The translations under genes were made by a program, and so were the position numbers. A stretch of DNA of 42,107 nt, the filler included, from an uncultured archaeon (GTDB lineage Archaea; Nanobdellota; Nanobdellia; Woesearchaeales; CAIVOO01): assembly GCA_903842985.1 (NCBI GenBank). It is 3 parts of 3 records of this genome, joined end to end, with 100 filler letters (N's around TTAATTAATTAA, not from the genome) between each part and the next. Parts side by side here need not be neighbours in the genome. Positions count along the whole stretch, not along the records: positions 8,296 to 18,974 come from CAIMOB010000059.1; 2 more parts are not named here. The stretch is one strand, 5' to 3'. Every line of letters starts with the position of its first letter. Position 1 is the stretch's first letter. Under the pieces are notes generated by a model. That model was given only the letters and a program-made list of their open reading frames with translations. It did not search any database and had not been told where the DNA came from. This document shows positions 4,525-41,200 of the stretch, piece by piece.

Positions 4525-4636
4525 CGCCTGGGACGGGACTTCCAGACCCGTATTGAGCATTCGAACCCGCGTGACACGGGTTACGTGCCAACTGGATTAT
4601 AAGTCCAGCGCTTTTACCAGACTCAGCCACCCAGGC
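4525..4636 (-). tRNA. tRNA with anticodon UAU (Ile by anticodon), type II body, 21-nt intron at 59/60 (4539-4559)
   Basis: Minus strand reads GCCTGGG TG GCTG AGTCTGGTAA AAGC G CTGGA CT-TAT-AA TCCAG T TGGCACG TAACC CGTGTCA C GCGGG TTCGAA[intron]T CCCGT CCCAGGC G. All stems pair. CCA not encoded. TATAAAAA about 30 nt upstream. Confidence 0.9.
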
Positions 4637-8195: not shown

Positions 8196-8295
8196 NNNNN
8201 NNNNNNNNNNNNNNNNNNNNNNNNNNNNNNNNNNNNNNNTTAATTAATTAANNNNNNNNNNNNNNNNNNNNNNNNNNNNNNNNNNNNNNNNNNNN
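8196..8295. other. Artificial contig spacer
   Basis: N run + TTAATTAATTAA (stops in all six frames) + N run, 100 nt. Confidence 0.97.
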
Positions 8296-8381
8296 GCAAA
8301 TTCATCCAGCCAGCGGTGTATTCTTTCATATCTTTTGCCAAATGCTGTTTCGCTTGCCCTGCAATGCTGTTCAAAATTCAT
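8296..8381 (-). CDS. Hypothetical protein, 5' fragment
   Basis: MNFEQHCRASETAFGKRYERIHRWLDEF..., runs into the gap. Confidence 0.5.
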
Positions 8382-8385
8382 AACT

Positions 8386-8643
8386 TTATTTTTTTAAAAT
8401 TTTGTAATATTGAATAGGGGTAATTCCTTCATCATATATGTAACAAGGCATCCCTTTGATAAACGCATTGGCATTCTCCGGTGCTTCCGATTCAATCCTT
8501 TTTCTAAACATTTCATTATCTACCATAGTATCTGATTTAGATGCTACTACATAACCTGGTTCTCTAATTGGTGTAGCTTTTATTGGTTTATTATCAATGC
8601 AGATTTTATCATTTAAATATGTTAATTCTATTAGTGCTCCCAT
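8386..8643 (-). CDS. Hypothetical protein
   Basis: 85-aa AT-rich ORF with GGGGG SD-like motif upstream. Confidence 0.6.
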   Translation of the reverse strand: MGALIELTYLNDKICIDNKPIKATPIREPGYVVASKSDTMVDNEMFRKRIESEAPENANAFIKGMPCYIYDEGITPIQYYKILKK

Positions 8644-8719
8644 TTTAATCCCCCCTATAAAGTTTTATTATTGTAGATATACTTATATTTTTCGCAAAGT
8701 TTGCAGAAATCCTGAAAAT

Positions 8720-9430
8720 CTAACCAACCCTCCCTTTAAGCGATCTTTTTTCCTTATCAACCAGTTTCACTTCATTTATTCTAAGGATTCCCGAATTCTC
8801 CGAGTCCATTTCAACAGCAGAGTCAACAATCTCAAGTCTTTTCCTGAAGTTTGGGCCGTCGGTAACAAGCGTTTCAAATTCTCCGCCTTCACCCACAATG
8901 CTTATCTTGTATTTCCTGTTCAGCGCCTTCAGTTCCCTTAGGGCGTCTGCATCAATAATTCTTCCGAGCCATTTGTCTGAGAAGCCGTCAGCTGCAACTC
9001 CTACAATCATTACCTTGAAATCCTTAATCAGCTTTTCCATGTATTCGTCCTGCGAAACATCCCAGAGCGGAGAGAATATCTTTAATTTTAAGTCAGCGCA
9101 CATCTCCTTCACATTGTTGAACTGGTATTTTGAAGCGATTGCGCCGACTGCAATGCCTTCAATCTTGTATTCCTTAATGGCTCGTTCAAGAGCCTTCCTC
9201 AAATCCTTCATTTCCAATTCTTTTTCCCCTTCTGTCGCCTGCGTTATTAGCGGGATTCCAAGGCATTCTGCAAGCTTCCCAGCCAGATTTATGTTTGGCG
9301 TGTGGAACATGTATGAACTTGGGTTCTCGGAAATGACAGAAACAAGGCATTTGACGTCATGCTCCTTCTGCGCAAGATAAACAGCATAAGTCGAATCCTT
9401 TCCGCCTGAGAATAGTGCTGCGAGTTTCAT
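8720..9430 (-). CDS. dph6: Diphthine-ammonia ligase (Dph6 family PP-loop ATPase)
   Basis: FSGGKDS, SYMFH, GAIASKYQ, PLW, GEGGEFET. Confidence 0.9.
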   Translation of the reverse strand: MKLAALFSGGKDSTYAVYLAQKEHDVKCLVSVISENPSSYMFHTPNINLAGKLAECLGIPLITQATEGEKELEMKDLRKALERAIKEYKIEGIAVGAIASKYQFNNVKEMCADLKLKIFSPLWDVSQDEYMEKLIKDFKVMIVGVAADGFSDKWLGRIIDADALRELKALNRKYKISIVGEGGEFETLVTDGPNFRKRLEIVDSAVEMDSENSGILRINEVKLVDKEKRSLKGRVG

Positions 9431-10920
9431 CTCGGCTTCATCGTAGGGAACAGAATCACATCCCTGATGCTTTTCTGGTCTGTAAGAAGCATAACAAACC
9501 TGTCGACGCCAAGTGAAGACCCGCCTGTTGGAGGCATTCCAGTTTCAATCGCTTCAATGAAGTCTTCATCCATTGGGTACTGCCTTGACTGCTCCTTAAA
9601 AAATTTCTTCTGAAGAATAGGATCGTTAAGTTCGGAATACGCGTTTCCGACCTCCATGCCCATGATGAACGGCTCAAATCTTTCAACGAACTTTGAATCG
9701 CCGGTTCTCAGCGGCTTGCACAAAGGCGTGGATTCAACTGGATGGTCTGTTACGAATGTCGGCTGAATCAGCTTCGGCTCAACTATCTCCTTGAAAAGTT
9801 CGCCAATAATAACGCCTCTTGTAACCTCGCCTTCAAATTTTATTTTGTATTGGTCGGCAAGCTCCCTTAATTCATCATCGCTCATGTCATTCACACTAAT
9901 CCCGCCGAACTCCTCAAGCGCATCAACCATTGTTATTCTTCTCCATTTCTTTGCAAAGTCAATTTCAGTTCCCTGGTAATTTATCTTTGTAGTGCCAAGC
10001 GCCTTTTTCGCTATAAATTTGCACATTTCCTCAAACTCGTCCATGACATCATTGTAATCAAAATATGCCCTGTACCATTCAACCATTGTGAACTCCGGAT
10101 TGTGCGTCTTGTCTATGCCCTCGTTCCTGAAATTCTTGTTAAGGTCATAAACCCTGTCAAATCCGGCGACAATCAGCCTTTTCAAATACAATTCAGGCGA
10201 TATTTTCAAATATAAGTCCATTTCAAGCTCCTTGTGATGCGTTGTGAAAGGCGTTGCAGCTGCTCCGCCGTAAACAGGCTGAAGAATCGGCGTTTCAACT
10301 TCAATGTAATTGTTCTTGTCCAAAAATTCTCTTATTGCAGAGATTATCTTTGCCCTTGCCTCGAAAATCTTCTTTTTTTCTGGGTCAGAAATCAAATCAA
10401 GATATCTTTTCCTGTAAATCAGCTCGGGGTCCTGTATCCCGTGGAACTTGTCAGGCAGTGGAAGCAGGGTTTTGCACAGAAGTGTCAATTTTTTGGTGTG
10501 CACTGTTATTTCTCCTGTCTTTGTCTTGAAAATCTCGCCTTCAATCCCAATTATATCACCCAAATCAAGAAGCTTGAACAGCTTGTATTGGTTTTCTCCG
10601 ACATCATCCTCTTTTATGTAGAACTGGATTTTACCAGTGTGATCAAGTATGTGCGCAAACGCCGCCTTCCCCATCGGCCTTAATGAAACAATCCTTCCTG
10701 CAACAATTGTCTTCTTGATTTTTTCAGAATCCTTCAGAATTTCATCTGCTGTGTTTTTTCTGTCAAACCTGTAAGGATATGGGTTTATGCCCAGCTTTCT
10801 TATCTCTTCCAGCTTCTTGTATCTGTCCTCTATTACTTTTGGCTTGTTTGCCCTGTCATCCTGGGAAGTCTCCTCTTCCCTGACAAGCCTCAGCTTTCCG
10901 TTTTTCTTTTCTTCTTTCAT
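9427..10920 (-). CDS. lysS: Lysyl-tRNA synthetase, class II
   Basis: OB-fold, EVETPILQ..YGGAAATPF, motif 2 FRNEGIDKTHNPEFT, motif 3 GMPPTGG.SLGVDR. Confidence 0.97.
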   Translation of the reverse strand: MKEEKKNGKLRLVREEETSQDDRANKPKVIEDRYKKLEEIRKLGINPYPYRFDRKNTADEILKDSEKIKKTIVAGRIVSLRPMGKAAFAHILDHTGKIQFYIKEDDVGENQYKLFKLLDLGDIIGIEGEIFKTKTGEITVHTKKLTLLCKTLLPLPDKFHGIQDPELIYRKRYLDLISDPEKKKIFEARAKIISAIREFLDKNNYIEVETPILQPVYGGAAATPFTTHHKELEMDLYLKISPELYLKRLIVAGFDRVYDLNKNFRNEGIDKTHNPEFTMVEWYRAYFDYNDVMDEFEEMCKFIAKKALGTTKINYQGTEIDFAKKWRRITMVDALEEFGGISVNDMSDDELRELADQYKIKFEGEVTRGVIIGELFKEIVEPKLIQPTFVTDHPVESTPLCKPLRTGDSKFVERFEPFIMGMEVGNAYSELNDPILQKKFFKEQSRQYPMDEDFIEAIETGMPPTGGSSLGVDRFVMLLTDQKSIRDVILFPTMKPR

Positions 10921-11258
10921 AGCAGTTTGAGCTTCCCGCTCACCTTGTCAACTTCTTTTTCCTTGTCAGGCCCTATTGCAAGGCAGGTTATTGTTCCTGT
11001 CTTGAAAAATGTTTTGCCTGCATCTGTTATTATCACATTAATTAATTTGTTTTTCTTTGCTTCTGCCTGAAGCTTCTTAAGCTCATTCAGGCTCTCGGCC
11101 TTCAAAACAACCTTCTTCATGCCTTCGTCTTCCCACTTCTTTACAATATCTTTACTGGATTTAAGGACAGCGGAAACAGAAGCATGCGCAGCCTGCGCAG
11201 CCAGCTTGCCCTTTGGCATGTTCAAGTCCTGCCTTATGATTATTGCCTGCTTGTACAT
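10917..11258 (-). CDS. pth2: Peptidyl-tRNA hydrolase Pth2
   Basis: KQAIIIRQDLNMPKGKLAAQAAHA, DAGKT, IGP; start at ATG 11258. Confidence 0.95.
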   Translation of the reverse strand: MYKQAIIIRQDLNMPKGKLAAQAAHASVSAVLKSSKDIVKKWEDEGMKKVVLKAESLNELKKLQAEAKKNKLINVIITDAGKTFFKTGTITCLAIGPDKEKEVDKVSGKLKLL

Positions 11259-11340
11259 ATCTGGCTTATATACTGGCTTATTTAAAAAGGTTTCGCACAG
11301 CACAGCAAATTAAATAAATTAGTTCCTTTCATCAAATTGA

Positions 11341-11934
11341 ATGGGAAACGGAAAAATCAAATTAACACCAGTGGACCAGCGCTACATTGCTTCATGTTCG
11401 CCGCTTCCTCACAAGTCAAATTATGCAGAAGCAATGAGATGGAAAGAAATACTGCGAAAGAGTTCAATGGCTGATAAAGAAAAATGGATTCCGATATCAG
11501 AGTTTAGGGTACCGTTTCCAAAAATCTACGTGCTGCATAAGGCGGGAGTTTTCGATGACAGAAGCGTTAAGAGCTATTTTGAAGGAACAGACAGAGAAGG
11601 GCACAACGAAGTATTATATAATTATGCTAAAGATGCAGTAAAACGCAATGATCCAGACCTGCCGGGAATTCTTGCGCACATAGAGCAGTGCTCTGTCAAG
11701 ATTGCACATATTGAAGACAATTTAGCAACAGTAATCGCTTATAGGGATAATTATCCCATAAGTCTTGATATGGAATATCTTGACGTATATCCTGTTACAG
11801 AATATGTTTTTGTCCACGGGAAAAGCAAAAAGGGGGCGATCGTTGTCAGGGGTATTGTGGATTTTGAAGTAGAAGATATGATCAAATGGTTTGAAGCGCT
11901 GCAAAAAGACTCTGAAAATCCGTTTTTAAAATGA
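11341..11934 (+). CDS. Hypothetical protein, possibly a divergent DUF6390-like hydrogenase-associated protein
   Basis: Coupled (ATGA overlap) to the hydrogenase protease; motifs FDDRSVKSYFEG, GHN, IEQC, YVFVHG. Confidence 0.55.
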   Translation: MGNGKIKLTPVDQRYIASCSPLPHKSNYAEAMRWKEILRKSSMADKEKWIPISEFRVPFPKIYVLHKAGVFDDRSVKSYFEGTDREGHNEVLYNYAKDAVKRNDPDLPGILAHIEQCSVKIAHIEDNLATVIAYRDNYPISLDMEYLDVYPVTEYVFVHGKSKKGAIVVRGIVDFEVEDMIKWFEALQKDSENPFLK

Positions 11935-12302
11935 AAATACTTGTTTTTGGTAACCTGCTTGTGAAGAAGGATAGCTTGCCGTTAAGAATTTTGCCGAAGC
12001 TGAAAAAGAAATTCAAGGACATAGAATTCAAGGATATAGACGCCACAGAAGAGCTTCAGGCAGAGGGGCGGGATTTAGTAATTCTCGACGCTGTTGAAGG
12101 GATTGACAAAGTTATGATAATAGAAAATATAGACCAGATAAAGCAAAGCAAGGTATATTCTCTTCATGATTTTGACTTGGGGTACAACCTGAAGCTTCTG
12201 AAAAAGATGAAGCTTATTGATTCTGCCAAGATAATAGGCGTTCCAATGAGAATTTCAGAAAAAGAAGCGCTTGCTCAAATCCAGTTTATTCTAAGGAAGT
12301 GA
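11931..12302 (+). CDS. Hydrogenase maturation endopeptidase (HycI/HybD family), short
   Basis: ILVFGNLLVKKDS, VILDAV, SLHDF; adjacent to the hydrogenase large subunit. Confidence 0.85.
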   Translation: MKILVFGNLLVKKDSLPLRILPKLKKKFKDIEFKDIDATEELQAEGRDLVILDAVEGIDKVMIIENIDQIKQSKVYSLHDFDLGYNLKLLKKMKLIDSAKIIGVPMRISEKEALAQIQFILRK

Positions 12303-13558
12303 GTTGCACAGCTCATGCAGGGGTCATACGCCCTTATCATTTTCTCGACTTCATGCCCTATCCTTGTCTTGCTCATTTTCTTTGCAAGCATCTGTTCGAC
12401 ATAGCTCGCAACATCCTTTTCAAGATGTATTATGTTCTGCTGGGTCGGGATGCAAATGCTTGCGTTCTTCACAATGCCACTGCTGTCAAACTCAATATGA
12501 TAATAAAGTGTTCCGCGCGGAGCTTCAACAACGCCGACGCCAGTTCCAGCTCTAACTTTAACTTCTACAGGCGCCTCCTTCTTGAAGTCGTAATCAAGCA
12601 ATTCCAATGAAGCGTCAAGGTCATGGAGCATTTCAATTGCCTGCGCAAGATTGTTCCTGAAGATGCAGTCAGACGGGAACTCACTTAGGTATTTCTTTGC
12701 GTCTCTTAGAGTATTTTTGTTAAGGCTTTCCTTGTTAAGGTTCATCCTTGCCAATGAGCCGACCATGTATTCCTTGCTTTCAAACTCAACTCCAAGTGCT
12801 GTTGAGTACGGCAGGACAACCTTTTGCAGATGGTCGCCATAATTTTCCTCGTTTATCAGCGTGCCTTTTGCTGTCTTTATTACACCTTTCAGGTAATTGA
12901 AATCGTTGTTGACAAGCGCCACATAATTTGTTTTTCTCTTGAATGTGCTTTTGTCATTGTAGAACAAATTAATGATTTTCAGTATCTTTGGCCTGACAGC
13001 AATAAGCTGTTTTTTCGCGTTTTCCAGCGCAGCTTTTTCAGGTATTTTCGAGAAACCGCCTATGAGCGGAAAATGCGGATGAATAGGTCTTCCGCCGATA
13101 ACAGTGGCAAGCAGGTTTCCGGCAGCTTTGAGATCAAAGCCGTCCTTTACCCAGCCCAGCTCCTGCTCATTGAAATCAAGAACAGAGTCCTTGTTGAACA
13201 AATCAGGCAGGCAGAAAAAATAAAGATGCATTGCATGGTCTCTCAGCTGGCTCGCATACATCAGGAGATTCCTCAGGACAAATGTCTGTTCGCTTGGCTT
13301 CACTCCAAACGCATTTTCAACAGCCTCTGTCGCGCACAAAACATGGGCAGAACTGCATGTCCCGCAGATTCTTGACATTGTGACGGGAACCATGCTGTAT
13401 TTCGCTCCTTTTATTGCAGTTGTGAAGAATCTCTTGTTCTCGCTTATCTTCAGTTTGCAGCTTGATACCTTGCCGTTCCTTGCCTTAACATCAAGATGCG
13501 TGTGTCCCTCTATTTTCGAGACATTCTTTATTTCCAGTTCAAATTCTTCGTCGTGCAT
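12275..13558 (-). CDS. [NiFe]-hydrogenase large subunit (group 3b-like)
   Basis: SKIEGH, L1 RICGTC..AH, EAPRG, PTQQN, L2 YDPCMSCATH, plus cleavable tail FLRINWI. Confidence 0.93.
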   Translation of the reverse strand: MHDEEFELEIKNVSKIEGHTHLDVKARNGKVSSCKLKISENKRFFTTAIKGAKYSMVPVTMSRICGTCSSAHVLCATEAVENAFGVKPSEQTFVLRNLLMYASQLRDHAMHLYFFCLPDLFNKDSVLDFNEQELGWVKDGFDLKAAGNLLATVIGGRPIHPHFPLIGGFSKIPEKAALENAKKQLIAVRPKILKIINLFYNDKSTFKRKTNYVALVNNDFNYLKGVIKTAKGTLINEENYGDHLQKVVLPYSTALGVEFESKEYMVGSLARMNLNKESLNKNTLRDAKKYLSEFPSDCIFRNNLAQAIEMLHDLDASLELLDYDFKKEAPVEVKVRAGTGVGVVEAPRGTLYYHIEFDSSGIVKNASICIPTQQNIIHLEKDVASYVEQMLAKKMSKTRIGHEVEKMIRAYDPCMSCATHFLRINWI

Positions 13559-13559
13559 T

Positions 13560-14024
13560 TTAACTGAATTTTTTAAGATAGCCCTCCATTTTTACAGCGA
13601 GCTCGTCCTCGCTTACAGGACAGCCGTTTATTTGATCGTCAACCTTAACAAACTTACTTATTGGAGATATTTCATCCAGCTGGTGCAGCTTCTTCACCAG
13701 CGGCGCAATCTCCTTTTTTCTTGTCTCATCAAAGCTGTTCCTCTGGTTTGAGGGATAGCCGTTTGCAGCGCCGGAGCCCAGTGCAACAACCATCTGGCTC
13801 TTTTCCCTTATCTCCTTCAGCTTTTTCACTTCGCTCTGCGTGGAAATAGCCCCTTCGACAAATGCAATGTCAAGGCTGCCAATAGTTTCATTTGAGCGCA
13901 GAACCCTTATGTTTTGTATGTCAACCTTGCTGGCATACTCAAAGAATTTCTTGTTCAGCAGTTCAATGAACATTACTGTACAGCCTTCACAGCAGGTAAA
14001 TGAAAAAAATCCTATCTTCATCAT
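13560..14024 (-). CDS. [NiFe]-hydrogenase small subunit, proximal-cluster domain only
   Basis: TCCEGC, FVEGAI, ALGSGA, INGCP; 154 aa. Confidence 0.9.
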   Translation of the reverse strand: MMKIGFFSFTCCEGCTVMFIELLNKKFFEYASKVDIQNIRVLRSNETIGSLDIAFVEGAISTQSEVKKLKEIREKSQMVVALGSGAANGYPSNQRNSFDETRKKEIAPLVKKLHQLDEISPISKFVKVDDQINGCPVSEDELAVKMEGYLKKFS

Positions 14025-14052
14025 TTAAATCCCCTTTACGACTATTGTTGGC

Positions 14053-14250
14053 TTATTTGCGCTTGCAATTGCATGCAGGGCAGCAGCCGAACAGCAGTTT
14101 AATCAATCCCTTGATTGCAATGATGCCGCCTACAAAAATTCCCCAGCTGAACCAGCCGTAAACCGCATTTAATACTATTAGCGCACCCAAAATCAAAAGT
14201 TTTGCACCTTTGCATCGCGGAGCACATTCACATTTTCCTGTTTCTTTCAT
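14053..14250 (-). CDS. Small Cys-rich membrane protein
   Basis: CECAPRC, two hydrophobic segments, CCPACNC; GAGGTG SD. Confidence 0.75.
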   Translation of the reverse strand: MKETGKCECAPRCKGAKLLILGALIVLNAVYGWFSWGIFVGGIIAIKGLIKLLFGCCPACNCKRK

Positions 14251-14267
14251 TTTAGCACCTCGTTTTA

Positions 14268-14480
14268 TTAAAATTTCCCTTCTTTTGAAAGGCCTATTAT
14301 CGCCGCCCTCAGCTTGTCAATGTGCTTTTCCATGTCCTTCTCCATTTCTTCGCACATTGTGTGGCACAGCGGATGACCATGCTTCTTTGCATCCTCTTTT
14401 GCATGCTTCTTCAGATACCAGTTAATCCTGCTGAGGTCATGCAGAAGCCTTACTTTATTGTAATTACAGTCATTAAGCAT
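14268..14480 (-). CDS. Small helical His/Cys protein, possibly half ferritin-like fold
   Basis: NYNK..L....W....H..EDA...GH..C...C...DMEKH; GGAGGTG SD. Confidence 0.7.
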   Translation of the reverse strand: MLNDCNYNKVRLLHDLSRINWYLKKHAKEDAKKHGHPLCHTMCEEMEKDMEKHIDKLRAAIIGLSKEGKF

Positions 14481-14557
14481 CTTCGCACCTCCTTTTTATG
14501 CGTTTATATACTATTTTGTTTAAAAAGCTTTCTTATATTTTATATAATTTATTAGAA

Positions 14558-15901
14558 TCACTTCTGCTTTTTCTTCTGTTCTGGCTTCTTAGTTTCTTCC
14601 TTCTTTACTTCTGTTTTTTCCTTTGGCTCGTCGTCCTCATCTTCTTCGTCATCTTCGTCTCCTTCTTTCTTGACAGACTTCTTCTCTCCAACCATTTCGC
14701 CCTTTTTCCTGATTTTCTTGTGAAGCTCTATTATTTTCTTTTTGTTAACATGTCCGCTAATTGCCCTGTACGCAGCAAACATGGAGACAATGGCAGCTGC
14801 CATCGAGCCGAAGTAAAGCATATTAGTCTTTACCTTGTCCATAAAGGTAACTTTCTGCTTCTGCGCGCTGTTCAGCTGGTCCGCCACATCATTAAAGCTT
14901 GATTCAGCCATCTCAAGGTTTGTCTTTGCTTTTTTGTAGTCACCTTCATACAAATAAAGCTGCGCTTGAGTCACATAATCATAAGCACTTTTTAATGTAT
15001 TTCCAGCAACATCAACTATGTAACCTTGGACCTTTTTGTCCTGGTATTCCTGGTTGAGAAGATTGTATTTTTCCTTCAGCTGGTCAAGCCTGCTTGACAA
15101 TTCAGTAACATTGAATTTTTCAGTTGTCTCATTCTTAACAACTGTTTTCTGCGTCACAGTTATCTGCCCTACAACCTTGTTTTTTAGCACATTATCCGCA
15201 TAAATTTTTATGACAAAGTCAATCATGCCCGGCTTTGAAGCGCTTATTTTCAAAAAAGCGTAGTCTTTCTCGCCGCTTGCAAGGGTTGCAATAGGCGCAG
15301 TTGATTCTGTTGACAGCCCGTCGCCGGTTATATCAACGCGTACGTTCTGCAGGTCAACTGTCCCAGTATTACTGATGAGGATATTTATCTGTGCATCGCC
15401 TGTTTCAATTGTGCTTGGAAAGATTTTTTCAACATTCAGCTCTTCAACACACTTGAACCCAGGATCGTGGCACGCATCGTCGCTGCACACGACGCATCCC
15501 TTATCGCATTTGCTTTTGCTGCACACCAATTCAGGTGCTACAACTGTCTCATTCTTCACCGCTTTCTTCAGGATTTCAACAGTGACTGTATCATTAGCGT
15601 TTTCAGTCAGCTTTGTTTTTGTTGATGAAAAATAAATCTTATAGTCAGGAGATGACTCATAGACAAGTGTAAAGTTTGAAACTGAGTAGCCTTCTGGCAC
15701 GTCAAATGAAGGGAGATGGGATGTGCATTTGGCTTCACAAGCATCATTTACGCCCTTGGAAGTTGTGTAGACTGTATTATTTGCATCCAATGCAGTAATA
15801 TCAACAGAATAGCTTACTTCAACAGCAGTCGCTACTGCAATATTAACCAATAAAAGGGCTATCAGACAAATCCATTTAATTTTTAACAAACTTTTCGTCA
15901 T
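14558..15901 (-). CDS. Membrane-anchored surface protein with CARDB-like Ig domain
   Basis: Signal peptide, Cys-rich segment, ISNTGTVDL Ig motif, helical bundle, TM segment, highly charged tail. Confidence 0.75.
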   Translation of the reverse strand: MTKSLLKIKWICLIALLLVNIAVATAVEVSYSVDITALDANNTVYTTSKGVNDACEAKCTSHLPSFDVPEGYSVSNFTLVYESSPDYKIYFSSTKTKLTENANDTVTVEILKKAVKNETVVAPELVCSKSKCDKGCVVCSDDACHDPGFKCVEELNVEKIFPSTIETGDAQINILISNTGTVDLQNVRVDITGDGLSTESTAPIATLASGEKDYAFLKISASKPGMIDFVIKIYADNVLKNKVVGQITVTQKTVVKNETTEKFNVTELSSRLDQLKEKYNLLNQEYQDKKVQGYIVDVAGNTLKSAYDYVTQAQLYLYEGDYKKAKTNLEMAESSFNDVADQLNSAQKQKVTFMDKVKTNMLYFGSMAAAIVSMFAAYRAISGHVNKKKIIELHKKIRKKGEMVGEKKSVKKEGDEDDEEDEDDEPKEKTEVKKEETKKPEQKKKQK

Positions 15902-16115
15902 TTTAAGTTTTAAATCGTGCTAGCGGTAGTTTATAAACCTTTTTGTCCTATTATTTACTATTAAATTCACTACTCAGTTATGGTAAAAACCAAAAGATTT
16001 AAATATAAGTTGGTATTTCTACTATAATAATATTGCTAAAAAGTGTTTAGGGGGAGTATAAAGGCAAGTATAGCTAAAAAGAGGCTATTCTAAGCTTAGA
16101 TGGGGGTAAATAGAA

Positions 16116-18068
16116 ATGGAAAAAACACAAAATTTGGAAAACGCAGTTGAAAGCTATAATAATATTTCTGGATTAAAGAAAGCATGGAATTTTGCCAAAA
16201 AGGCAGCATTACCTGTGATTGCAGGACTATCTCTTCTTTATGCGATAGAAACTAACGCAAATGCAAAGAGAGATAAGACTCCAATGATCACACCAACGCC
16301 AATTAATTATGCTGACTTTTCTGCGCCTGCAACAAATGCAGTAGCGCCACTAAAGGTTAACAAGCCTTTTGGCGAAAAGAAAGAAGAGCCACCGAAGATT
16401 ATAGCACCTGTGATAGGACCTACAGAAGTTATTGCACCAAAGCCAGTTACAGCTCCAGTAGGAGTCATAATTAAAGAAGAGCCATCAAAACCAGCAGTTT
16501 ATGTTATTAGTCCTGAAAAAAGAGCAAATGAAGCGAGAAAAAATGAAATATACACAAGGCTTGGCTCAAAATCAGGATGCATTCCTGAAAAGGATTTCAT
16601 TGTCTGCACTAAAACAGACGGCGTTGGAGCGCTTGGAGTAATATCCCTGCCTAACACAATCAATTATGATTTAAGCATACTTTCAAAAAACTTTGATTTT
16701 AACAAATATCTGAACAAAAATGTTCTGAAGTCAATACCTGAAGGAGCAACAAGGACAATAAAGCCTTCAAGCGAACTTGGGTTTGTAAGCGTCCTGAAAG
16801 GAATCGGCGCTGAATACCCTACCCCAGAAACAGCAATTGCAATACTTAATACAAATCGCCTTGAACTTTTGTTTAGTGGCTGCGAGGCAGGTTACAATGG
16901 AAAGGAGCTTGAAAAGTTCATGTGCAAAACTCCAAAAAAGCCATTCACTTCTTCAAAAGGTTATGTTTTACTGCCTTTTGGAGGTGGAGAGGGAAAATTC
17001 CAGATAAATCCAAGAAAACTTTCACCAGATGTTCTTGAAGCGCTTGACGCAATGAAAGGCGGAAAGAAGCTTAAATGCGACGAAAGAGAGCTGATAGGGT
17101 TGAATTGTAAGGGAAAAAAGCCAGCAAAAGAACAAGCAATTAAACCAAAACAGACTGAAATGGCTGAAGCAGTTACCGGAACAGCCGGAAGCGGCTGGAC
17201 TAAAGCGTTTTGGAACGCATTCACAAGGAACTCTGAAGGAGAACTATTTTTCAATTACCTAAACGGATTTGAAGATGGAAAAGTAACTGTTTACGACGAG
17301 ACAGGAATGGGCTACCAAGCTGGCTACGGCGGTTCGCAGAATAAAGTTGGAGCAAGCGGAGCGCTAAAACCAAGATTTACAATCATAGGCGGACTGGTTG
17401 GAGGTTTGCACCTTGATGGCGCATACAATCATTCAGTAGGAAGAAAGGACGACAAACTTGCAAATGAGACTCTTGAGGAATTAACTGAGATTGCTTTGAG
17501 AGCAGGCATAGGTCTTGGCTACAGGGTCAATGACAAGGTACTGCTTGAGCTAAAAGGCGGGTACGCACTTTTGGACAACAGCATCAGGACATCTGACGCA
17601 GGACTCAACACAAAAATTGATGATTCACAGCACAAGGGGTACTTTGGGGCAATTGAACTACAGCTACCTCTTCGCTCAAAAGTCGAGGCAGACTACACCC
17701 AAACATGGGGAGACAGGGAAACCACAGTAAGTGGAGAAGGGATAGACCCAATGGTGACTAAGCTTGATTCGAAAAATAAACTAGTGGAAGTCAAAGCAGA
17801 ATCGCTGCCTATAGATCTAAGAAAATTAGGCAGAATTGGTGCTTCGCTTGGGTATGAGAAAGGAATCAGCAAAAACAAACCCAAAGGAGGATCTGATGTT
17901 GAGGTTGACAGCGACAAGCTTGGCGCAGGCATAATTTACGAAAACGGCATATTCAGGTTAGAACTTGGCGGAAAGTACGTAACAAAAATCAATCCGCACG
18001 ACGCAGCTGTCCAGCCAGGAGAAGCTTACGAGCTTAACGGCCGTGTTGGGCTAAAATTCAGAAAATAA
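16116..18068 (+). CDS. Secreted protein with putative C-terminal beta-barrel
   Basis: Extended signal peptide (..TNANA), Pro-rich linker, six-Cys domain, then about 12 amphipathic beta-strands ending YELNGRVGLKFRK. Confidence 0.7.
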   Translation: MEKTQNLENAVESYNNISGLKKAWNFAKKAALPVIAGLSLLYAIETNANAKRDKTPMITPTPINYADFSAPATNAVAPLKVNKPFGEKKEEPPKIIAPVIGPTEVIAPKPVTAPVGVIIKEEPSKPAVYVISPEKRANEARKNEIYTRLGSKSGCIPEKDFIVCTKTDGVGALGVISLPNTINYDLSILSKNFDFNKYLNKNVLKSIPEGATRTIKPSSELGFVSVLKGIGAEYPTPETAIAILNTNRLELLFSGCEAGYNGKELEKFMCKTPKKPFTSSKGYVLLPFGGGEGKFQINPRKLSPDVLEALDAMKGGKKLKCDERELIGLNCKGKKPAKEQAIKPKQTEMAEAVTGTAGSGWTKAFWNAFTRNSEGELFFNYLNGFEDGKVTVYDETGMGYQAGYGGSQNKVGASGALKPRFTIIGGLVGGLHLDGAYNHSVGRKDDKLANETLEELTEIALRAGIGLGYRVNDKVLLELKGGYALLDNSIRTSDAGLNTKIDDSQHKGYFGAIELQLPLRSKVEADYTQTWGDRETTVSGEGIDPMVTKLDSKNKLVEVKAESLPIDLRKLGRIGASLGYEKGISKNKPKGGSDVEVDSDKLGAGIIYENGIFRLELGGKYVTKINPHDAAVQPGEAYELNGRVGLKFRK

Positions 18069-18073
18069 TCACA

Positions 18074-18974
18074 ATGAAAATCAGCAAAATCTTTTCATTT
18101 TTAGTTTTATTCTTTCTAGCTGCAGCTGTTGTAAATGCAACAGGCGTAGCGACAATAACACCAGCGTCTCCTGCAAGCCACAATGCAAACTTGCTTTGCC
18201 AGGTGAGCTCAGGAAGCGGGTACACCTATAAATGGTACAGGAATGGGGGTTTGACTTCAGTTACTTCAAACACAGTTCCGGCAGCCAGCACGAACATAGG
18301 TGAAAGCTGGAAATGCGAAGTCTGGAAGTATCTTGGAGCAGCCGGCGGATGGGTTAAGTACGGCGAAGACACAGTAACAATAGGAGACAGTGCACCTGTG
18401 CTTGCTTCAATTGGAAACAAGAATGTAAATGAAAACGCACTTTTGACATTCACAATATCTGCAACAGATGCAGACGGAGACTCAATAACATATTCAGCTT
18501 CAGGTCTGCCTTCAGGGGCAAGCTTCAGCGGAACTACATTCAGCTGGACACCAACATATGACCAGTCAGGAACATATTCTGCAACATTCACAGCAAACGA
18601 TGGAGTCGGTGGAACAGCTTCACAGACAATCACAATTACAGTAAATAATTTTGACAGGGCTCCTGTTTTGAATTCAATCGGAAACAAGCAGACAAATGAG
18701 AACCAGGCTTTGACATTCTCAATTTCAGGCTCAGATCCTGATGGAAACAGCTTGACATACACTGCTTCAGGGCTTCCAAGCGGAGCAACATTATCGTCAA
18801 GCGGAGCATTCGGCTGGACACCGTCATATTCACAGTCAGGAACGTACCCAGGTATCACATTCACAGTCTCTGACGGCTCATTGACAGCTTCAGAAACAAT
18901 AACAATCACAGTCAATAATGTAAATAGAGTGCCTGGTTTGAATTCAATCGGAAACAAGCAGACAAATGAGAACC
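18074..18974 (+). CDS. Surface protein with tandem Ig/cadherin-like repeats, truncated at contig end
   Basis: Signal peptide; ~90-aa repeats APVL.SIGNK..NEN..L.F.IS..D.DG..TY.ASGLPSGA..F.WTP.Y.QSGTY. Confidence 0.88.
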
Positions 18975-19074
18975 NNNNNNNNNNNNNNNNNNNNNNNNNN
19001 NNNNNNNNNNNNNNNNNNTTAATTAATTAANNNNNNNNNNNNNNNNNNNNNNNNNNNNNNNNNNNNNNNNNNNN
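18975..19074. other. Artificial contig spacer
   Basis: Same 100-nt N/TTAATTAATTAA/N linker. Confidence 0.97.
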
Positions 19075-19143
19075 CGAGGGGGATTTGAACCCCCGACACC
19101 ACGGTCTTCAGCCGTGTGCTCTCCCAGGCTGAGCTACCGCCCC
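19075..19143 (-). tRNA. tRNA-Phe(GAA), 3' end cut by the gap
   Basis: GGGGCGG TA GCTC AGCCTGGGA GAGC A CACGG CT-GAA-GA CCGTG GTGTC GGGGG TTCAAAT CCCCC TCG... Confidence 0.93.
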
Positions 19144-19204
19144 TTAGTCTATTTCTTCTTCCTTGGCTTCAGGAAGCTCTTCTGTTATCTCTTCCTTTGC
19201 TTCC

Positions 19205-34543: not shown

Positions 34544-35296
34544 TTATAGTTTCCCAAGCTCGTTCTTCAGCTCGTCAAAGACATGGTCAAGCACTTCGGG
34601 CTTCCAGCCGTGCGTTGCCAATGCGCTCTTAATTTCCTCTTTGTTCCTGCCTTTTTCCAGCTCTTCAACTATGTACTCCTGCAGATGCTGTATGGCATGC
34701 CCTGCCTTTCTTTTCTTGTAATAAAGCGCCAGGTCAACAAGCACAGCAACTGCAATTACAGTTGTCAGCATTATGACAAGTATGTGGCTTGCGTTGTAAT
34801 TGACAACAACCTTCTCCTCTGAAGCAGCAGGCGCTGCCTTCTCAACCTCTATCCCCTGCTCGCCAATCTGCATCTTGACAGCATCAACCTTTAACTCTTT
34901 TGGCGGGAACGCTATTTTTATGTTTGCAACAACATGCACTTTCGCACCTATCTGCCCATTTTGCACAGTTGTCTCTGATACAATGACTTTTAAGTCCCCT
35001 TCGTCGAGGTCTTTAGGCAGGGTAAAGTCAATGTTGAATTTCTTGATTTCCTCTGAAGCTGAGATGAACAGCGTTTTCGGAACAGTTGCATATTCCGCAA
35101 GCGAGCCGCTGACAGACATATCAACATACATATCTTTATTTTCATCATTTATTATGTAAATGTTCACTGATTTTTGAACATTTGGCTCGTATTCAACTGC
35201 CTTGTTGTTTGTGCCGATTCCAAGCGCAAGTGCAGAGCTGCACATAAGCACAGCTAGCAAAAACATTACAATCCCTGTCCTGTTTAGCTTATTCAT
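34544..35296 (-). CDS. Membrane-anchored protein with Ig-like ectodomain
   Basis: Signal peptide (..ALA-LGIG), beta-rich domain, TM segment, C-terminal G....I...L...GW motif. Confidence 0.75.
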   Translation of the reverse strand: MNKLNRTGIVMFLLAVLMCSSALALGIGTNNKAVEYEPNVQKSVNIYIINDENKDMYVDMSVSGSLAEYATVPKTLFISASEEIKKFNIDFTLPKDLDEGDLKVIVSETTVQNGQIGAKVHVVANIKIAFPPKELKVDAVKMQIGEQGIEVEKAAPAASEEKVVVNYNASHILVIMLTTVIAVAVLVDLALYYKKRKAGHAIQHLQEYIVEELEKGRNKEEIKSALATHGWKPEVLDHVFDELKNELGKL

Positions 35297-38200
35297 CCTG
35301 GCTGCACCACACCATCAGTTGCGATTTTTTTGCGCCTGCCCCTTCATCAGGCGGTCCTGTTACCTTAAGCTCAATTTCCGCTGAATCATTTTTATCATAG
35401 TACTTCAACCCACCAATTGCAAGCAGCGGAGTTGTCTTTACAATATTATACCAGGAATCATTAAGCGCAGAATCCCAAGCATTGCTTGAATTATCGTCTA
35501 TCCTGAACTGATAATAGGATGACGGATTTGGCTTTGAGAGCCACAAATCAGTTGAATTGATTGAAATATTTAGCTTCAGGTTTCCATTATTCTGGATAAG
35601 CATCGGCGCCGGATTATCGCTTACTGTGCTATTGGTTATTCCAACGCCTATTTCTCCGAAACTGACTTTATTTACCGGCATTGAGCAGGTGATGCTCGTT
35701 ATGATTGTATAGTTTCTTTGCGCGCTGAAGCTTCCATGCAAAACACCTCTCTGGGCCCTGACTTTCCAATTGTACGTTCCGAAATTCATGTCAGCTGGCG
35801 GCGTGTAATTCGTGCTGGATATAGTTACATTTATTTCAGGCGAAGCGAATGACGTGTCATTGTCAACCAGCAGCTGATAGGTGATTCCGCTGCCTGCTAC
35901 AGCTGTCCAATTCATTGTCGGCGTCCTGTCAATGAGGACAGCGTCGTTTGCCGGCGAAATCAACGAAGGCGTTGAAGGAATGGTGCCATTTAAGTCGAAT
36001 TCTCTGCTTTTTGCATTTGTCGCATTATGCCTGCTTCCGACTATCCATGGAACAAGCCTAATTCTGTAGATGCCTGGTTCATAGCCAGTGGTGTTCCAGA
36101 TGTAGTTAAGCCCCACAACTCTTGCAAGAAGCGTTTCAACTCCTGTCCAGGTCCTGTTAAGCAAGATGTCATAGGTTACAGTGCTCATGGCGCTCTGCCT
36201 TGTCCAGTTTATTTCTATCACGCCATCGCTGTAATTCCCTTCTGCAGGGCTTGTCACGCTGCTGAGGCCGCAGTCATTGGAGCCTATGCCGCTTGCAGCT
36301 ATTGATTCTTCATAGAAGTTTCCTTCACCAGCGACGCAGTAATTATTGTTTGAATCTTCTTTGGCAGATAAGTACGGAGGTGTGGTTTTGCTTGGAATCA
36401 CATAATATGTTGAATTTAATGTATCATTAAACAGGTAATTATTAATGCCTCCCTGAGATGTGAATGCATTATGTTTGTAATAGCGGCAGGCGCCAGGGGA
36501 ACTTAATAAAGAGTCTAAAACTGCACAGCCGGTGACGCCATATGCGTAGCATTCTCTGCAGAATATTGTTGACATTTTTCCTGCGCCCTGGCCAAGCACA
36601 GCGCCACTCGTGTCATTGAATAGCAAAAGATCATAATTGTTGGTGCCGTTTGCTGATGTGATTTTTGTGTTGTCCGCTGTTACAACCCCAACACTGACTG
36701 CTGGAATAACAAAAGCGTATGTGTCGCCGAAATTCTCGCCATTGTAATGCATCGGCGAGTAGGAAGTGTAGAAACTTTTTTTGCCGCCCAAGTATGGAGG
36801 TGTTGTTTTGTTTGGAATCACATAATATGTGGAATTGAATGTATCATTTAACAAGTAATCCTGCCCAGCGCCCTGCGCCACAAGCGCATTTTTCTTTTCA
36901 TAGAAGCAGGTTCCTGAATTCAATGCAGCAACCTGTGTGCAATTATAAGGTGCAGTACTTTCTGCAAATACTGTGATATTTCCGTATGGGCCAGGCAGGT
37001 CCATCAGCCACAAATTGAAGTTTTTGGCTCCGTCAGGTATCATTACCAGCGTGTTGTCTGAAGTTACGAAGTTAATGACAGACAGGGTGTCATCTATAAA
37101 GAAATAACTGCTGTTGAAATCCCTGTCGCCGTAATGCATCGGCGAGTAAGATGCATAATATTTCTTGTTTGTATCGCTGTCTTTTACCCCTTTTGAAAGG
37201 AAGTGATTGAGCCGGAATGAATTGTTTGCTCCGTTTACCAAGACATCGAAGTTTCCGCTGTTGTAAATTTTGTTTGAAAATACCTTGTTGCTGTCTGATT
37301 CAATCAAAATGCCCGGCTTCAAGACGCTCAGGCTGTTGCCCAATGATGGACTGAACAGCGAAGCCAATGATTCGCTTATTGTGTTGTTTACCAGAATATT
37401 GTTTGCGAAATAATTATTTGTGGAGTTTTGCCTTGCAAGCAGCAGGGTATAAACTATGCTAATCGTATCATTTATTGCATTGGCAGGAGTTAATGAGATG
37501 CTTGCCGTAGGTGAGTTGCCGATAAATGAATTGTTTACTATGCTGTTGTTGCTTGAGTTCAAAAGGCCGACTCCTCCAAACATTAGGTTTGTGACATTTG
37601 TTGAATAAAATGCGTCATTTACAATGTCAAGACCGAAGCCGGCATTCACCATTGATAGCTTATTGTTTTTTATTGTGGAATCGTATGCGTTCTTCAGTCC
37701 GATGGAAGAGACAAAGTTATCGTCAAAAACAGTGTCATGTATTTTTGTATAATTTGTTGCGTCCGATCTAATCCATAATTTTGCATTATGGTATTTTGCA
37801 TTATTTGATTCGATGGTGTTGTTCAAGCCTCCGACAATAACTAATGCAATTGTTAGATTATTGATTGACAGTTTTTTTAAGTCAACATTGTTTCCATGGG
37901 TAGTTATATTTATATTCAAATCCTTGATAAGCACATCATTATTGCTTGCAACATTATTATTTCCCAAAATATTCATGCTGAATACTTTGCCGTTAACAGC
38001 TGTTGAATTTTCAATTGTTGTATTTGTATGCGAATTCAGGTCAATGCCGCTTTTTTCAATTGCCATCTTATTTCTGGAAATCTTGTTTGAATTTCCCTGC
38101 AGGGCGAAGGAGCCCAGCATTATGTTTAGTTTATTGTTTGCTATATCTGTGACATTTCCATAGCTGTATATTGAAACTCCGCTATTGTTGAATATGAAAG

Positions 38201-41200
38201 AGTTATTTTCAATAATATTGTTGTTTCCTTTGATGTACGCGACAGCTGCTCCAAATGAAACATCATCGTTCTTAACATCAACTTTATCAGCTCTCAGATT
38301 CGCCATAATTTTAAAGCTGTCAAAGGTTAGATTGTTGCTAACTAGGGTCATATTGTTGACATTTGTCGAATAAATTGGACCGAGAATTCCCAAGGCAGTT
38401 GCATCCAGATTAACGCCTGTTACATTTCCTCCAGTTATATTGAATGTACTTCCGCTACTGCTGAAAAGCGATTGGAATATGTATATCAAGAACGACACTG
38501 AGGGATCAATGCCAGTTATGTTTGCCGGGAAAGTCTGGTTTGTAAATTCTTCGTAAACAGAAGATATGTTTTTGATGTACCATGCGTCTTTGTTCGACAT
38601 GAGATTATTGTCCCTGACAGTTACATTATTGCAGTCTTGGATTGTGAGCATTATAAGCAAGTTGTTTTCCACCTTATTTCTTACAATCATTACATTTTTT
38701 AAACCCTGCGCATACAATGCACCCAGCAGACCTACTGTGTTTGTTATATTATTCCCTTCGAAAAGAATTCCATTAGAACTATCTGCGCCAATCAAGCCAG
38801 CAAAAGCTGTGCTTAAGTAAGTAACTGTATTGTTGACTGCACTGCTGTTGTCGCTCGAGGAAAACCTTATGCCTCCAGAAAATTTGAATGTATTATTTAG
38901 CGCATAGGTGTATGGCGAATAACGTGCATAAATCTGCCCGCCGCCGCTTCCACTAAATAAATTAATAGATAGATTCTTGCTTATCTTATTGTTGAAAATG
39001 TTTGTATGAGGAGAATATGAAAGTTCTATTAGGTTTCCAGTTGCGTCTATGTAATTGCCTGTTATGTTGGAATAATACGAAGAAGACAAATACACACTGC
39101 CATTCAAAATTTTATTGTTTATGATGTTGGAATAATTTGAATTAATGATGTAAATATCATATTGGTTATTGTTGATGTTGCAGTTTTGGATTACGTCATC
39201 TCCATAACCATCAACATACACCCCATAATAGTATTCGTTTATATTGCAGTTTTGGACTACATTATCTCCGTAGCCACCAACATACACACCATAGCCATAA
39301 TTATTCCCGATAAGCGTTGCATTGTTGCAGTCCAAAGTTACATCTGAAGCATTTAAAATGATGATGCCATATGCAGCACTGTCATTGAGGTGGAAAGTTC
39401 CGCTGCACAGCGTTGTATCTGAATTGATAAACATGTCATTGTATGGGGGCATACATGTAAGCGTAAACTGCCATGTGTCAGAAAAGTTGCTCCATTCCTT
39501 GCCATCATAGACCCTGACTTTCCAATAACGAGTGCCTTCACTGGTCAGCCCCACCTGCGTGTAATTGTTGCTGCTTGTCACAGTGTTGTTTATTTCGGGC
39601 GATGAAAAGTCATCGTTGTTATCAATCACAATGTTGTATTTATTCTGCACATCACCGTCTTCGTCAGAGTAAGTCCAGCTGAATGTTGGTAAGCTGCCCA
39701 AAATAGAATTATTTGCCGGGCTTGCCACTGCAACTGTCGGGGCGGTGTTGATTGTAATATTGTTGGAGCAGCTTACATCATTTCCATAGCCGTCAACCAG
39801 CAATCCATCTTCATAGCCGTCATTTGGGATTATGCATGCTCTCCATCTCTCTTTGCTTTCTGTCTCTTCTGCAACGATCCTGTCTGTCCTGTTGTTGTAC
39901 AATGCTTTTACCTGCGCTGCTGAAAGCGCCCTGTTGTAAATACTTACTGAGTCAATTTTGCCGTTGAAATGGTAATCTGCACCAGAATTAGTCGAGCCAA
40001 TGCTCAATATTCCTAAATTAGTCATTGTGTTTTCAATGCCATTTTGCGTTTGGCTTAATGTGTTCTCTGCACCATCAATATATAGTTTTGAATTACTCCA
40101 GTCATTATAATCGAAGATTATAGCTAACTGATGCCAGTTTGTATCTGTTATTGTCGAAGCGCTTGTCGCATACCAATAACTTGCTCCGCTGTAAAACATT
40201 TGCAAATAAATTTTGTTATTGTCATTGAATCTGATATAAACTGGTTCAGGAGTTGGGGAATTTTTGTCCAATAAAACTTCATAATCATTCATCGCCCCAT
40301 TTCTTTTTAGCCACATTGAATAAGTTGCTTGGCCTGAAACAATATTCAAACTTGCAGAATTATTAATTGTAACATAGTCATTGCTTCCGTCAAAGCTGTA
40401 GGCGCCTTTCCCATCAAATCCTCCGTTTGAACTCCAGGTCGCCCCATGCACAGTTCCGTTGTTTCCGTAAGGTGAGTAATCCTTTGTCTTTCCAGCTCCA
40501 GCAGAATTGTTTGAATTGAACGGCATGTTCAGAACCATAATCGAAGTTCCGTTTCTGTACCAGTTGATTATGTTAGTTACTGGGTCACCATCTCTGTCGT
40601 AAGTCGAGATATTGTAAACAGTCAAATTCTCATTTGAACCGTTTGTTCCAAATGCCGAGTTTAATCTTGGTCTTCCCTGTGTAGGCAGATTGTTGACAAA
40701 CACCCTCTCATTTTTTGAGACTGTTGTACCGCTTGTGTCATTTGCGTAGATTGTGTAGTTCGTGCCGTGCGTCCAGCTCCCGTTTGTTGTTATCGTTATC
40801 TGCCATAAGTTTCCTGAAATAAAGTTCAAGAATCCTTCAAATATTGTTTCCAGCGCACCCGCGACTGTTTTCCACACCTTTATCCAGACGCTGCTGACCG
40901 GCGCCTCTGTCTGTGCCACTGTTGCATTTATTGTTATATTTTCCCCTGCTTTTACAAGCGTCTTGTTTGTTATCTTCTTTTTGTTCTTGTCATGCAGCTG
41001 TAGCTGTGTTATGTTTGGAGGTGTTGACGATTTAAGGGTAAGAGAATTGCTGAATTCTGTTAACCCATCAGCGTAGCCGTCATTCGGCGTTATTGTTGCA
41101 TTCCAGGTTTCTCCATACACTGTTTCTTCTGCAACAATCCTGTCTGTTCTGCTGTTATACAATGCTTTTACCTGCGCTGCTGACAAAGCTCTGTTGTAAA

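Follow-up and report, generated by a model that had tools for sequence, protein, structure and literature searches.

How does an archaeon come to encode a protein with the outline of a bacterial outer membrane β-barrel, and which membrane would such a protein enter? We address this question for a gene, here called the barrel gene, in a 42,107-nucleotide stretch of DNA (the window) from an uncultured, tiny, and probably host-dependent member of the Woesearchaeales (NCBI GenBank assembly GCA_903842985.1). The window consists of contigs C57, C59, and C60 joined together, and the barrel gene is located on C59, which corresponds to window positions 8296-18974. Membrane β-barrels are regarded as characteristic of diderm bacteria and organelles and as requiring Omp85. 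We lean towards the view that fast-evolving 12-stranded barrels, co-expressed with immunoglobulin-like (Ig) adhesins across the order, insert into a second membrane without Omp85, either as a device for grappling or feeding on a bacterial host or as part of an archaeal outer membrane.

A Predicted 12-Stranded Barrel Domain

The barrel gene encodes a protein with the following parts.

16116..18068, + strand: open reading frame (ORF) of the barrel protein, 650 amino acids, no Pfam family over the cut-off.
16116..16265, + strand: long signal peptide, residues 1-50, with a basic n-region, a weak h-region and an A-N-A motif, which suggests cleavage.
16278..16505, + strand: Pro/Lys/Glu-rich linker, residues ~55-130, read from the sequence.
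16551..17150, + strand: Cys-containing domain, residues ~146-345, fold not assigned; delimited by alignment, with C256 and C270 kept in the homolog P0003.
17193..17228, + strand: putative amphipathic helix, residues 360-371 (WTKAFWNAF), from the sequence and a low-confidence model; absent in both sequence homologs.
17238..18059, + strand: predicted 12-stranded transmembrane-type β-barrel domain, residues 375-648, from the strand pattern, sub-threshold PF13505 matches, Atlas, and weak model matches.

The preliminary description of this gene had placed the strands from about position 17238, and this was borne out, in that residue 375 corresponds to base 17238 and every strand quoted is present. 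With the register of the 12 strands set by hand, the outward face comprises 62 residues with a mean Kyte-Doolittle hydropathy of 1.97, 14 of them aromatic and 0 charged, and the inward face comprises 50 residues with a mean of -1.45, including 21 charged residues and 12 glycines. The links between the strands alternate between long and short (29/3/21/3/25/3/29/8/21/4/16 residues), and all six up-strands end in a tyrosine (residues 381, 437, 483, 527, 580, and 621). Judging from this pattern, residues 375-648 very probably form a closed 12-stranded barrel.

A strand heuristic, the weights of which were fixed before the control proteins were fetched, gave the barrel domain a score of 5.12 (z 4.3 versus shuffles), compared to 4.88-5.58 for 7 outer membrane proteins (OMPs) of Escherichia coli; the highest score was 4.39 among 26 soluble E. 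coli proteins and 5.10 among 693 background ORFs. The giant Ig proteins described below scored 4.3-5.1, and the heuristic score is therefore supportive but not diagnostic. In a scan of the source genome with the same heuristic, only one barrel-like ORF stood out.

Sequence searches identified 2 homologs. P0003, a protein of 609 amino acids from a Logan contig, was matched with an E value of 8.8e-13 in an alignment (30% over 472) that takes in the barrel as well as the Cys domain, and P0002, a protein of 419 amino acids from the unpublished genome G121 (1 of 400 other genomes of the order), shared only the barrel. A gene near that for P0002, which we take to encode an archaeal Elp3-like protein, has a product that is 65% identical to a protein of the source genome. 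A homolog from the same order carries the NCBI label Candidatus Woesearchaeota, and the order was accordingly taken to be Woesearchaeales. The survey of homologs that had been proposed as a check thus returned 2 proteins that keep the strand-face pattern, with charged outward residues at 2/58 (P0003) and 6/55 (P0002) positions, and that both lack the helix, residues 360-371 being aligned to gaps. The barrel protein, P0003, and P0002 also gave sub-threshold matches to the OMP family OMP_b-brl (PF13505), with E values of 0.011, 7e-4, and 1.3e-3. By Atlas features, the nearest bacterial clusters were found at 0.92-0.93, 2 of them partly annotated as Autotransporter, with neighbors that carried PF03797 in 17-34% of their members; the shared features numbered 146-163, which is under the 170 typical for members of the same family.

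The last strand had been likened to a bacterial β-signal, and this likeness is partial. The protein ends in ...RVGLKF followed by RK, and in a comparison with LGLGYRF the Phe, basic, and Gly positions fit but the Tyr and the first Gly do not. The latter motif is given as the bacterial consensus in the accessible part of a study that makes no mention there of archaea (PMC10629564). A terminal Phe was present in 4 of 19 barrels.

As for the parts upstream of the barrel, the six cysteines (155, 164, 256, 270, 321, and 331), the Pro-rich linker, the long signal peptide, and the lack of a helical anchor were all as previously described, but the WTKAFWNAF helix is not conserved, and of the six cysteines only C256 and C270 were kept, in P0003. 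The Cys domain had no other match than P0003 among the proteins of the source genome and the fetched regions, and an Atlas search with it gave scores of at most 0.82. The signal peptide of the barrel protein reached a best 13-residue hydropathy of 2.15. Signal peptides were weak in all 19 barrel proteins (1.15-2.55) and strong in 18 partner proteins (2.65-3.46); the weak class includes the S-layer-like protein (1.84) and MltD-like proteins of the same genome and overlaps with exported E. coli proteins (1.93-2.8). In one counterpart (L091 576-2648), which has 13 Cys, the signal was seen by eye to end in Cys in the manner of a lipobox, and this protein may be attached to the archaeal membrane by a lipid.

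A Recurring Operon with Giant Surface Proteins

The barrel gene is followed after a gap of 5 nucleotides by a second gene on the same strand.

18074..18974, + strand: secreted Ig-repeat (He_PIG/Big_9/PKD) surface protein, the operon partner, identified by Pfam and cut by the contig end.
18140..18400, + strand: conserved N-terminal domain of the partner, with Cys, Tyr, Trp, and Cys invariant in 13 rows.

The partner ORF ends with the contig at position 18974, and the 318 amino acids listed for it include linker sequence. Homologs located after barrel genes in related genomes are 553-1408 amino acids long. The gap agrees with that given in the preliminary description, the probable co-transcription with an Ig-repeat adhesin proposed there is supported, and the pairing was found to recur across the order. 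A search for PF13505 in 331 genomes of the order yielded 9 matches, including the gene studied here, and in 6 of the 8 others the barrel gene was located directly 5' of, and on the same strand as, a gene for a secreted Ig/PKD/DUF11 protein, 2 of which were homologs of ORF 18074. The remaining matches, G093:C19 and G192:C1, fell outside this pattern. The former (L040) is an OMP of 195 amino acids that exceeds the PF13505 cut-off, on a 4.9-kb contig without clear archaeal genes, and is possibly a bacterial contaminant.

An independent test started from the partner. A profile of its N-terminal domain matched 18 of 44 related genomes, and with the 3 training domains left out there were 21 ORFs in 20 fetched regions. 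Where the domain was located within the first 40 residues, a barrel-like gene was present on the 5' side in 7 of 10 cases, the other 3 facing a divergent AglB-like gene instead (named by size and by a C-terminus shared with the STT3-confirmed protein of L077), compared to only 1 of the 11 ORFs with internal copies alone. The Fisher p value for this association (0.0075) is overstated because 7 of the 10 loci belong to the family of the source genome. The 8 genes thus picked by position scored 4.46-5.56 in their C-terminal part (z 2.9-5.2), with 11-13 strand calls; 2 of them scored below the 99th percentile of the background (4.63), and none of the 8 had a Pfam OMP match. Conversely, the gene for P0002, which had been found by sequence alone, is followed 27 nucleotides later by an ORF that starts with the same partner domain. 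Over 15 pairs, the distance between barrel and partner gene ranged from -11 to 47 nucleotides. We conclude that the barrel gene and a gene for a giant Ig/PKD surface protein form a recurring operon in the order. It was detected in 10 of the 44 relatives searched, a count that relies on a single partner domain.

A few further features of these loci were noted. Genome G004 contained 2 barrel-like genes in tandem (L042 6822-8591), the single-contig genome G025 contained 2 separate barrel-adhesin loci (L037 and L081), and near the G240 locus a further protein was seen to end like an OMP (L036 1-836). The Ig giants at L039, L043, L074, L077, L080, and L091 have in common a helix-free final domain that resembles CARDB or a type IX secretion tail. 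Many loci continue with a gene for an Ig-like protein of 414-454 amino acids with a C-terminal hydrophobic stretch, which usually follows the helix-free giants, and the 2 proteins may form a sorting or anchoring pair. Some counterparts appeared by eye to contain LysM-like motifs, which Pfam did not support.

Rapid Divergence of the Barrels

The barrels appear to diverge very fast, almost beyond recognition at the sequence level. In a set of 5.8 billion sequences, searches with the barrel region or the A2 profile retrieved only the query itself, and the A3 profile added only P0005, which is identical to P0002. A search of 1.84 billion representatives gave 3 matches; P0004 was rejected as a homolog, being a chance match of low complexity. 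No relatives were found in scans of genomes, metagenomes, and viral contigs, in phages, in a sample of 401 genomes of the class, or in 41 genomes around G121.

A profile of 3 sequences detected only the same-genus counterpart with an E value of 0.0034 (range 0.003-0.007) and a same-family counterpart with an E value of 0.0045, both in register, while the best E values were 4.4 for reversed decoys and 0.9 for the background. Iteration from the A3 profile clearly recovered L077 and L073, with L081 as a marginal case, and no other counterparts; E. coli NanC was not detected by the barrel family profile. The partner repeats are 62% identical to those of the same-genus counterpart, whereas the barrels reach only E values of 0.003-0.007. 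The N-terminal regions of the counterparts are unrelated, with spacers from ~45 to 690 residues, and for the remaining counterparts it is position and architecture that suggest common ancestry.

The Membrane That the Barrel May Enter

The uncharged outer face implies that the barrel needs a bilayer, and the cleavable signal and the lack of an anchor imply that it enters this bilayer from outside the cytoplasmic membrane and that its turns and its N-terminal domain remain on the side of the archaeon. The topology after insertion is here taken from that established for OMPs. No Omp85 protein (PF01103) was found in the 331 genomes of the order, in a search whose controls were positive in 7 of 14, and the source genome (879 kb, 92.65% complete, 1.64% contaminated) had no matches to POTRA, TamB, or OmpH, nor to the β-barrel assembly machinery (BAM), the translocation and assembly module (TAM), or Skp. 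The search for Omp85/BamA that had been advised was thus negative. The preliminary description had proposed a pore or anchor in a host membrane or an unrecognized envelope layer; the notion of an outer membrane-type barrel without BamA was supported, but the sequence does not decide between the membranes.

The reading that we prefer, with a probability of roughly 0.4, is that the barrel is an anchor or pore inserted into the membrane of a partner cell, which is likely to be bacterial. The protein would be exported by Sec, and its C-terminal 274 residues would fold as a monomeric 12-stranded barrel with a charged, Gly-rich lumen. Its gene would be the first of a surface operon, of which the second encodes a long Ig/PKD-repeat adhesin. 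The adhesin would be the first to touch the partner cell, probably a bacterium, after which the barrel could be released into the contact zone and fold into the partner membrane from the archaeal side without any Omp85 of the archaeon's own. The short turns, the N-terminal domain, and the linker would remain turned towards the archaeon, with the long loops reaching across the bilayer. The barrel may then act as a tight anchor, and possibly as a pore for small solutes, alongside peptidoglycan-cutting enzymes. Signal cleavage, the target membrane, pore activity, and contact between barrel and adhesin are the steps that we infer.

A partner-cell membrane is favored because of the single barrel, the S-layer, the patchy occurrence (10/44), the extreme divergence, the coupling to an adhesin, and the murein-cutting enzymes. 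The S-layer-like gene (PF05124) is located at 305-2743 on the + strand of the window and encodes a weak signal peptide; the protein is without a C-terminal helix, and its anchoring is unexplained. Three genes with SLT domains over the cut-off were identified in the genome (C40:8026-8379, C39:111-515, and C4:23170-23484; L032-L034), 2 of them encoding membrane-anchored proteins. In Woesearchaeota, murein transglycosylases have been interpreted as pointing to attacks on bacteria in a paper that also covers tlyC and that, in its accessible part, does not mention barrels (PMC9723730). It was further noted that the 879-kb genome contains many long, β-rich surface proteins, namely the ORF at 35289-42107 (- strand) and nine other ORFs of more than 1400 amino acids.

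Several observations weigh against this reading. The source archaeon has no known host, insertion from outside through a lipopolysaccharide leaflet is hard, and nothing evident tethers the mature barrel protein to the archaeon. The partner domain is found without a barrel at 3 of the 10 loci, which indicates that the adhesin does not need the barrel. The weak signal class is common to the barrel and the S-layer-like protein, and many loci adjoin AglB (STT3 E 2e-40 in the same-genus genome), glycosyltransferases, and a GGR-like gene, both of which would fit a role in the archaeon's own envelope equally well; no STT3 match was found in the present assembly. In leave-one-out tests over 18 barrel domains, profiles performed no better than shuffles (held-out E 0.2-91). 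Furthermore, AlphaFold yielded low-confidence models, with a predicted local distance difference test (pLDDT) score of 28.6 for the full-length protein and of 36.5 (predicted TM-score 0.35) for the barrel modeled with 3 sequences, in which four long C-terminal strands were at pLDDT ~50-55, and Foldseek gave no match to the barrel model at E<=0.001.

The alternative that survives best, although it is rather unlikely, is that these Woesearchaeales have an unrecognized outer membrane, in which the barrel would serve as a porin or tether and the Ig giant would be a filament beyond it. The N-terminal linker and domain would face the cell as in OmpA and OmpM, and insertion would be spontaneous or aided by a non-Omp85 factor. 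The location of the operon in an envelope locus beside STT3/AglB, the position of the barrel gene as the first of a tightly coupled pair, and the signal class shared with the S-layer-like protein would all suit such a role, and the low number of barrels that end in Phe (4/19) indicates no tuning to BamA. Diderm archaea do exist, DPANN included (PMC8871954), and a distant relative of the Bdellovibrio protein PopA has been suggested in the DPANN group Altiarchaeales (PMC12228718). An outer membrane is not mentioned in the accessible portion of a study of 208 complete Nanobdellota genomes (bioRxiv 10.64898/2026.05.13.725050). Against this alternative, one barrel-like ORF in a genome of this completeness falls short of what a full outer membrane would need, the operon was detected via one partner domain in only 10 of 44 relatives, and the genome has an S-layer-like gene but no match to Omp85, POTRA, TamB, or OmpH.

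It is improbable that the barrel folds back from outside into the cytoplasmic membrane of the archaeon itself, where it would be either a gated pore for uptake or an anchor for the otherwise unanchored adhesin. This would require neither a second membrane nor a host, and 6 of the 9 complete barrel-associated Ig giants are without a clear C-terminal helix. However, an open 12-stranded pore would leak ions, the Ig giant of L074, which has no barrel gene, has the same helix-free final domain, and the downstream protein of 414-454 amino acids would be a simpler anchor.

Equally improbable is a soluble β-meander or sandwich, the apolar face of which would be hidden inside a core or lattice of protein. 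AlphaFold closed no barrel, sequence searches against the PDB found nothing relevant, and the heuristic score alone is not specific, given the values of the giant Ig proteins. Such a fold would leave unexplained the absence of charges among the 62 outward residues, the 12 glycines on the polar face, the six tyrosines that end the up-strands, and the alternation of short turns and long loops. Furthermore, the Atlas and Pfam leads are all to OMP families, and in a VIA comparison with the low-confidence model the 24 best rows were all membrane barrels. The Z scores, which are to be read in the light of a poor model, were 9.6 for CymA (root-mean-square deviation 5.6 over 157), 8.6 for OpcA, 8.5 for KdgM, 7.7 for NanC, and 8.1-8.2 for NalP and EstA. 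The structural check that had been advised therefore returned membrane barrels, but weakly, and a closed barrel was not obtained.

Least probable of all is a true autotransporter or two-partner pore that the host's BamA would fold in the host periplasm, with the N-terminal domain or the Ig giant threaded across the membrane: the 12 strands after an amphipathic helix, the PF03797-carrying Atlas neighbors, the Z scores of NalP and EstA, and a pore-plus-giant gene pair reminiscent of TpsB/TpsA would fit, but PF03797, Omp85, and POTRA are missing, the helix is absent in the homologs, the terminal aromatic residue is mostly absent, and the partner itself carries a strong signal peptide as well as Ig domains of the disulfide type.

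Archaeal Origin of the Barrel Gene and Other Features of the Window

The barrel gene is a real, archaeal feature. C59 also encodes archaeal Dph6 and Pth2, both over the NCBIfam cut-offs, in agreement with the dph6 and pth2 genes read earlier on this contig, as well as a CARDB protein, for which 4 of 6 genomes of the same family gave a match. The orthologs of the CARDB gene in 3 relatives had no adjoining barrel gene. The barrel gene is of native composition; it was at the 62nd percentile in codon score and at the 33rd percentile in tetranucleotides, and its GC content at third codon positions was low (0.34, 6th percentile). Upstream of it are 2 elements.

15990..16005, + strand: archaeal B recognition element (BRE) and TATA promoter-like element, ~118 nucleotides 5' of the start, read from the sequence, with a putative promoter function.
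16102..16107, + strand: Shine-Dalgarno-like GGGGGT, read from the sequence.

A TATA-like pattern was present 5' of 13 of the 15 barrel genes examined. Near-identical short contigs from 4 runs of one freshwater-sediment study, at a depth of 2.4-5.1, cover the archaeal genes and the barrel gene alike; these runs may be the source samples, and no single piece reaches across the locus. The possibility of a bacterial chimera, which had been named as a refutation, was considered and rejected, being unlikely because the codon and tetranucleotide use is ordinary, the BRE-TATA element is present, the neighbors are archaeal, and the short-contig depth is similar.

Other features of the window are listed here.

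9427-10920, - strand: class II lysyl-tRNA synthetase on the archaeal contig, over the cut-off of the bacterial-type model lysS_bact.
11931-14024: compact sulfhydrogenase-like NiFe large subunit, short small subunit of 154 amino acids, and maturation protease.
4545-4636, - strand: tRNA-Ile with anticodon TAT according to ARAGORN; its variable arm is long and the end of its T-arm is degraded, and it resembles a Leu/Ser-type body or a pseudo-tRNA.
19075-19146, - strand: tRNA-Phe(GAA)-like sequence, read by eye, truncated by the start of C60 and absent from the ARAGORN calls.
8196-8295 and 18975-19074: linkers of N44, 12 bases, and N44; genes across them are not true neighbors.

Comparison with Known Barrel Systems

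The kind of fold is known, but as a 12-stranded barrel encoded in a recurring adhesin operon, in the absence of BAM, it appears to be undescribed, and we found no paper on such barrels or on the operon in Woesearchaeota in a full-text literature search, the coverage of which mostly excludes subscription journals. If the barrel does serve to grapple a host, it would be a device for the attachment of an archaeon to a bacterium without a described counterpart. In either case, the operon provides a concrete protein to localize, refold, and use as bait in order to distinguish the piercing of bacteria from a second membrane, and the N-terminal domain of the partner offers a practical handle on barrels that sequence searches miss.

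Among known systems, the KdgM and NanC porins head the low-confidence structural matches together with CymA and OpcA; KdgM and NanC are monomeric with 12 strands, CymA has 14, and OpcA has 10. The barrel resembles KdgM and NanC in its ~270 residues, 12 amphipathic strands, and charged lumen, but differs in being encoded by an archaeal gene, in its long N-terminal linker and Cys domain, in the tail after the last strand, in the absence of BAM from the genome, and in the lack of a sequence or Pfam match. With the type Va autotransporters (NalP, EstA, and Ag43; PF03797) it shares a signal peptide, an N-terminal region, a helix, and a 12-stranded C-terminal barrel, with an Atlas value of 0.92. Here, however, the helix is not conserved, the terminal aromatic residue is absent in most counterparts, and there is no BAM or TAM. 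PF03797 had no match in the genome at E<=0.1, nor in the barrel protein, P0003, or P0002 at E<=10. The label of autotransporter given in the preliminary description is not supported, in view of this result, a helix that is private to the protein, the unrelated N-termini, and the few terminal aromatics.

The coupling of a barrel gene to one that encodes a giant secreted adhesin is reminiscent of TpsB/TpsA, but TpsB is an Omp85-family barrel of 16 strands with POTRA, in contrast to 12 strands without Omp85 or POTRA, and the partner here has Ig/PKD repeats rather than the β-helix and two-partner secretion domain of TpsA. In the OmpM/SlpA and OmpA-type envelope tethers, a spacer domain at the N-terminus is linked to a membrane barrel, a layout that is alike, although here there is no SLH or peptidoglycan-binding Pfam domain and the spacers vary. 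The proposed insertion into the membrane of another cell has a parallel in PopA (Bd0427), a Bdellovibrio OMP reported to enter the prey inner membrane, and in PorB, reported to enter mitochondria (PMC12228718). PopA is a plugged pentamer of 16 strands from a diderm bacterium with BamA, and it was not among the best 50 VIA rows, a result that excludes nothing. By these comparisons, the protein works like an outer membrane barrel but belongs to neither the autotransporter nor the TpsB family.

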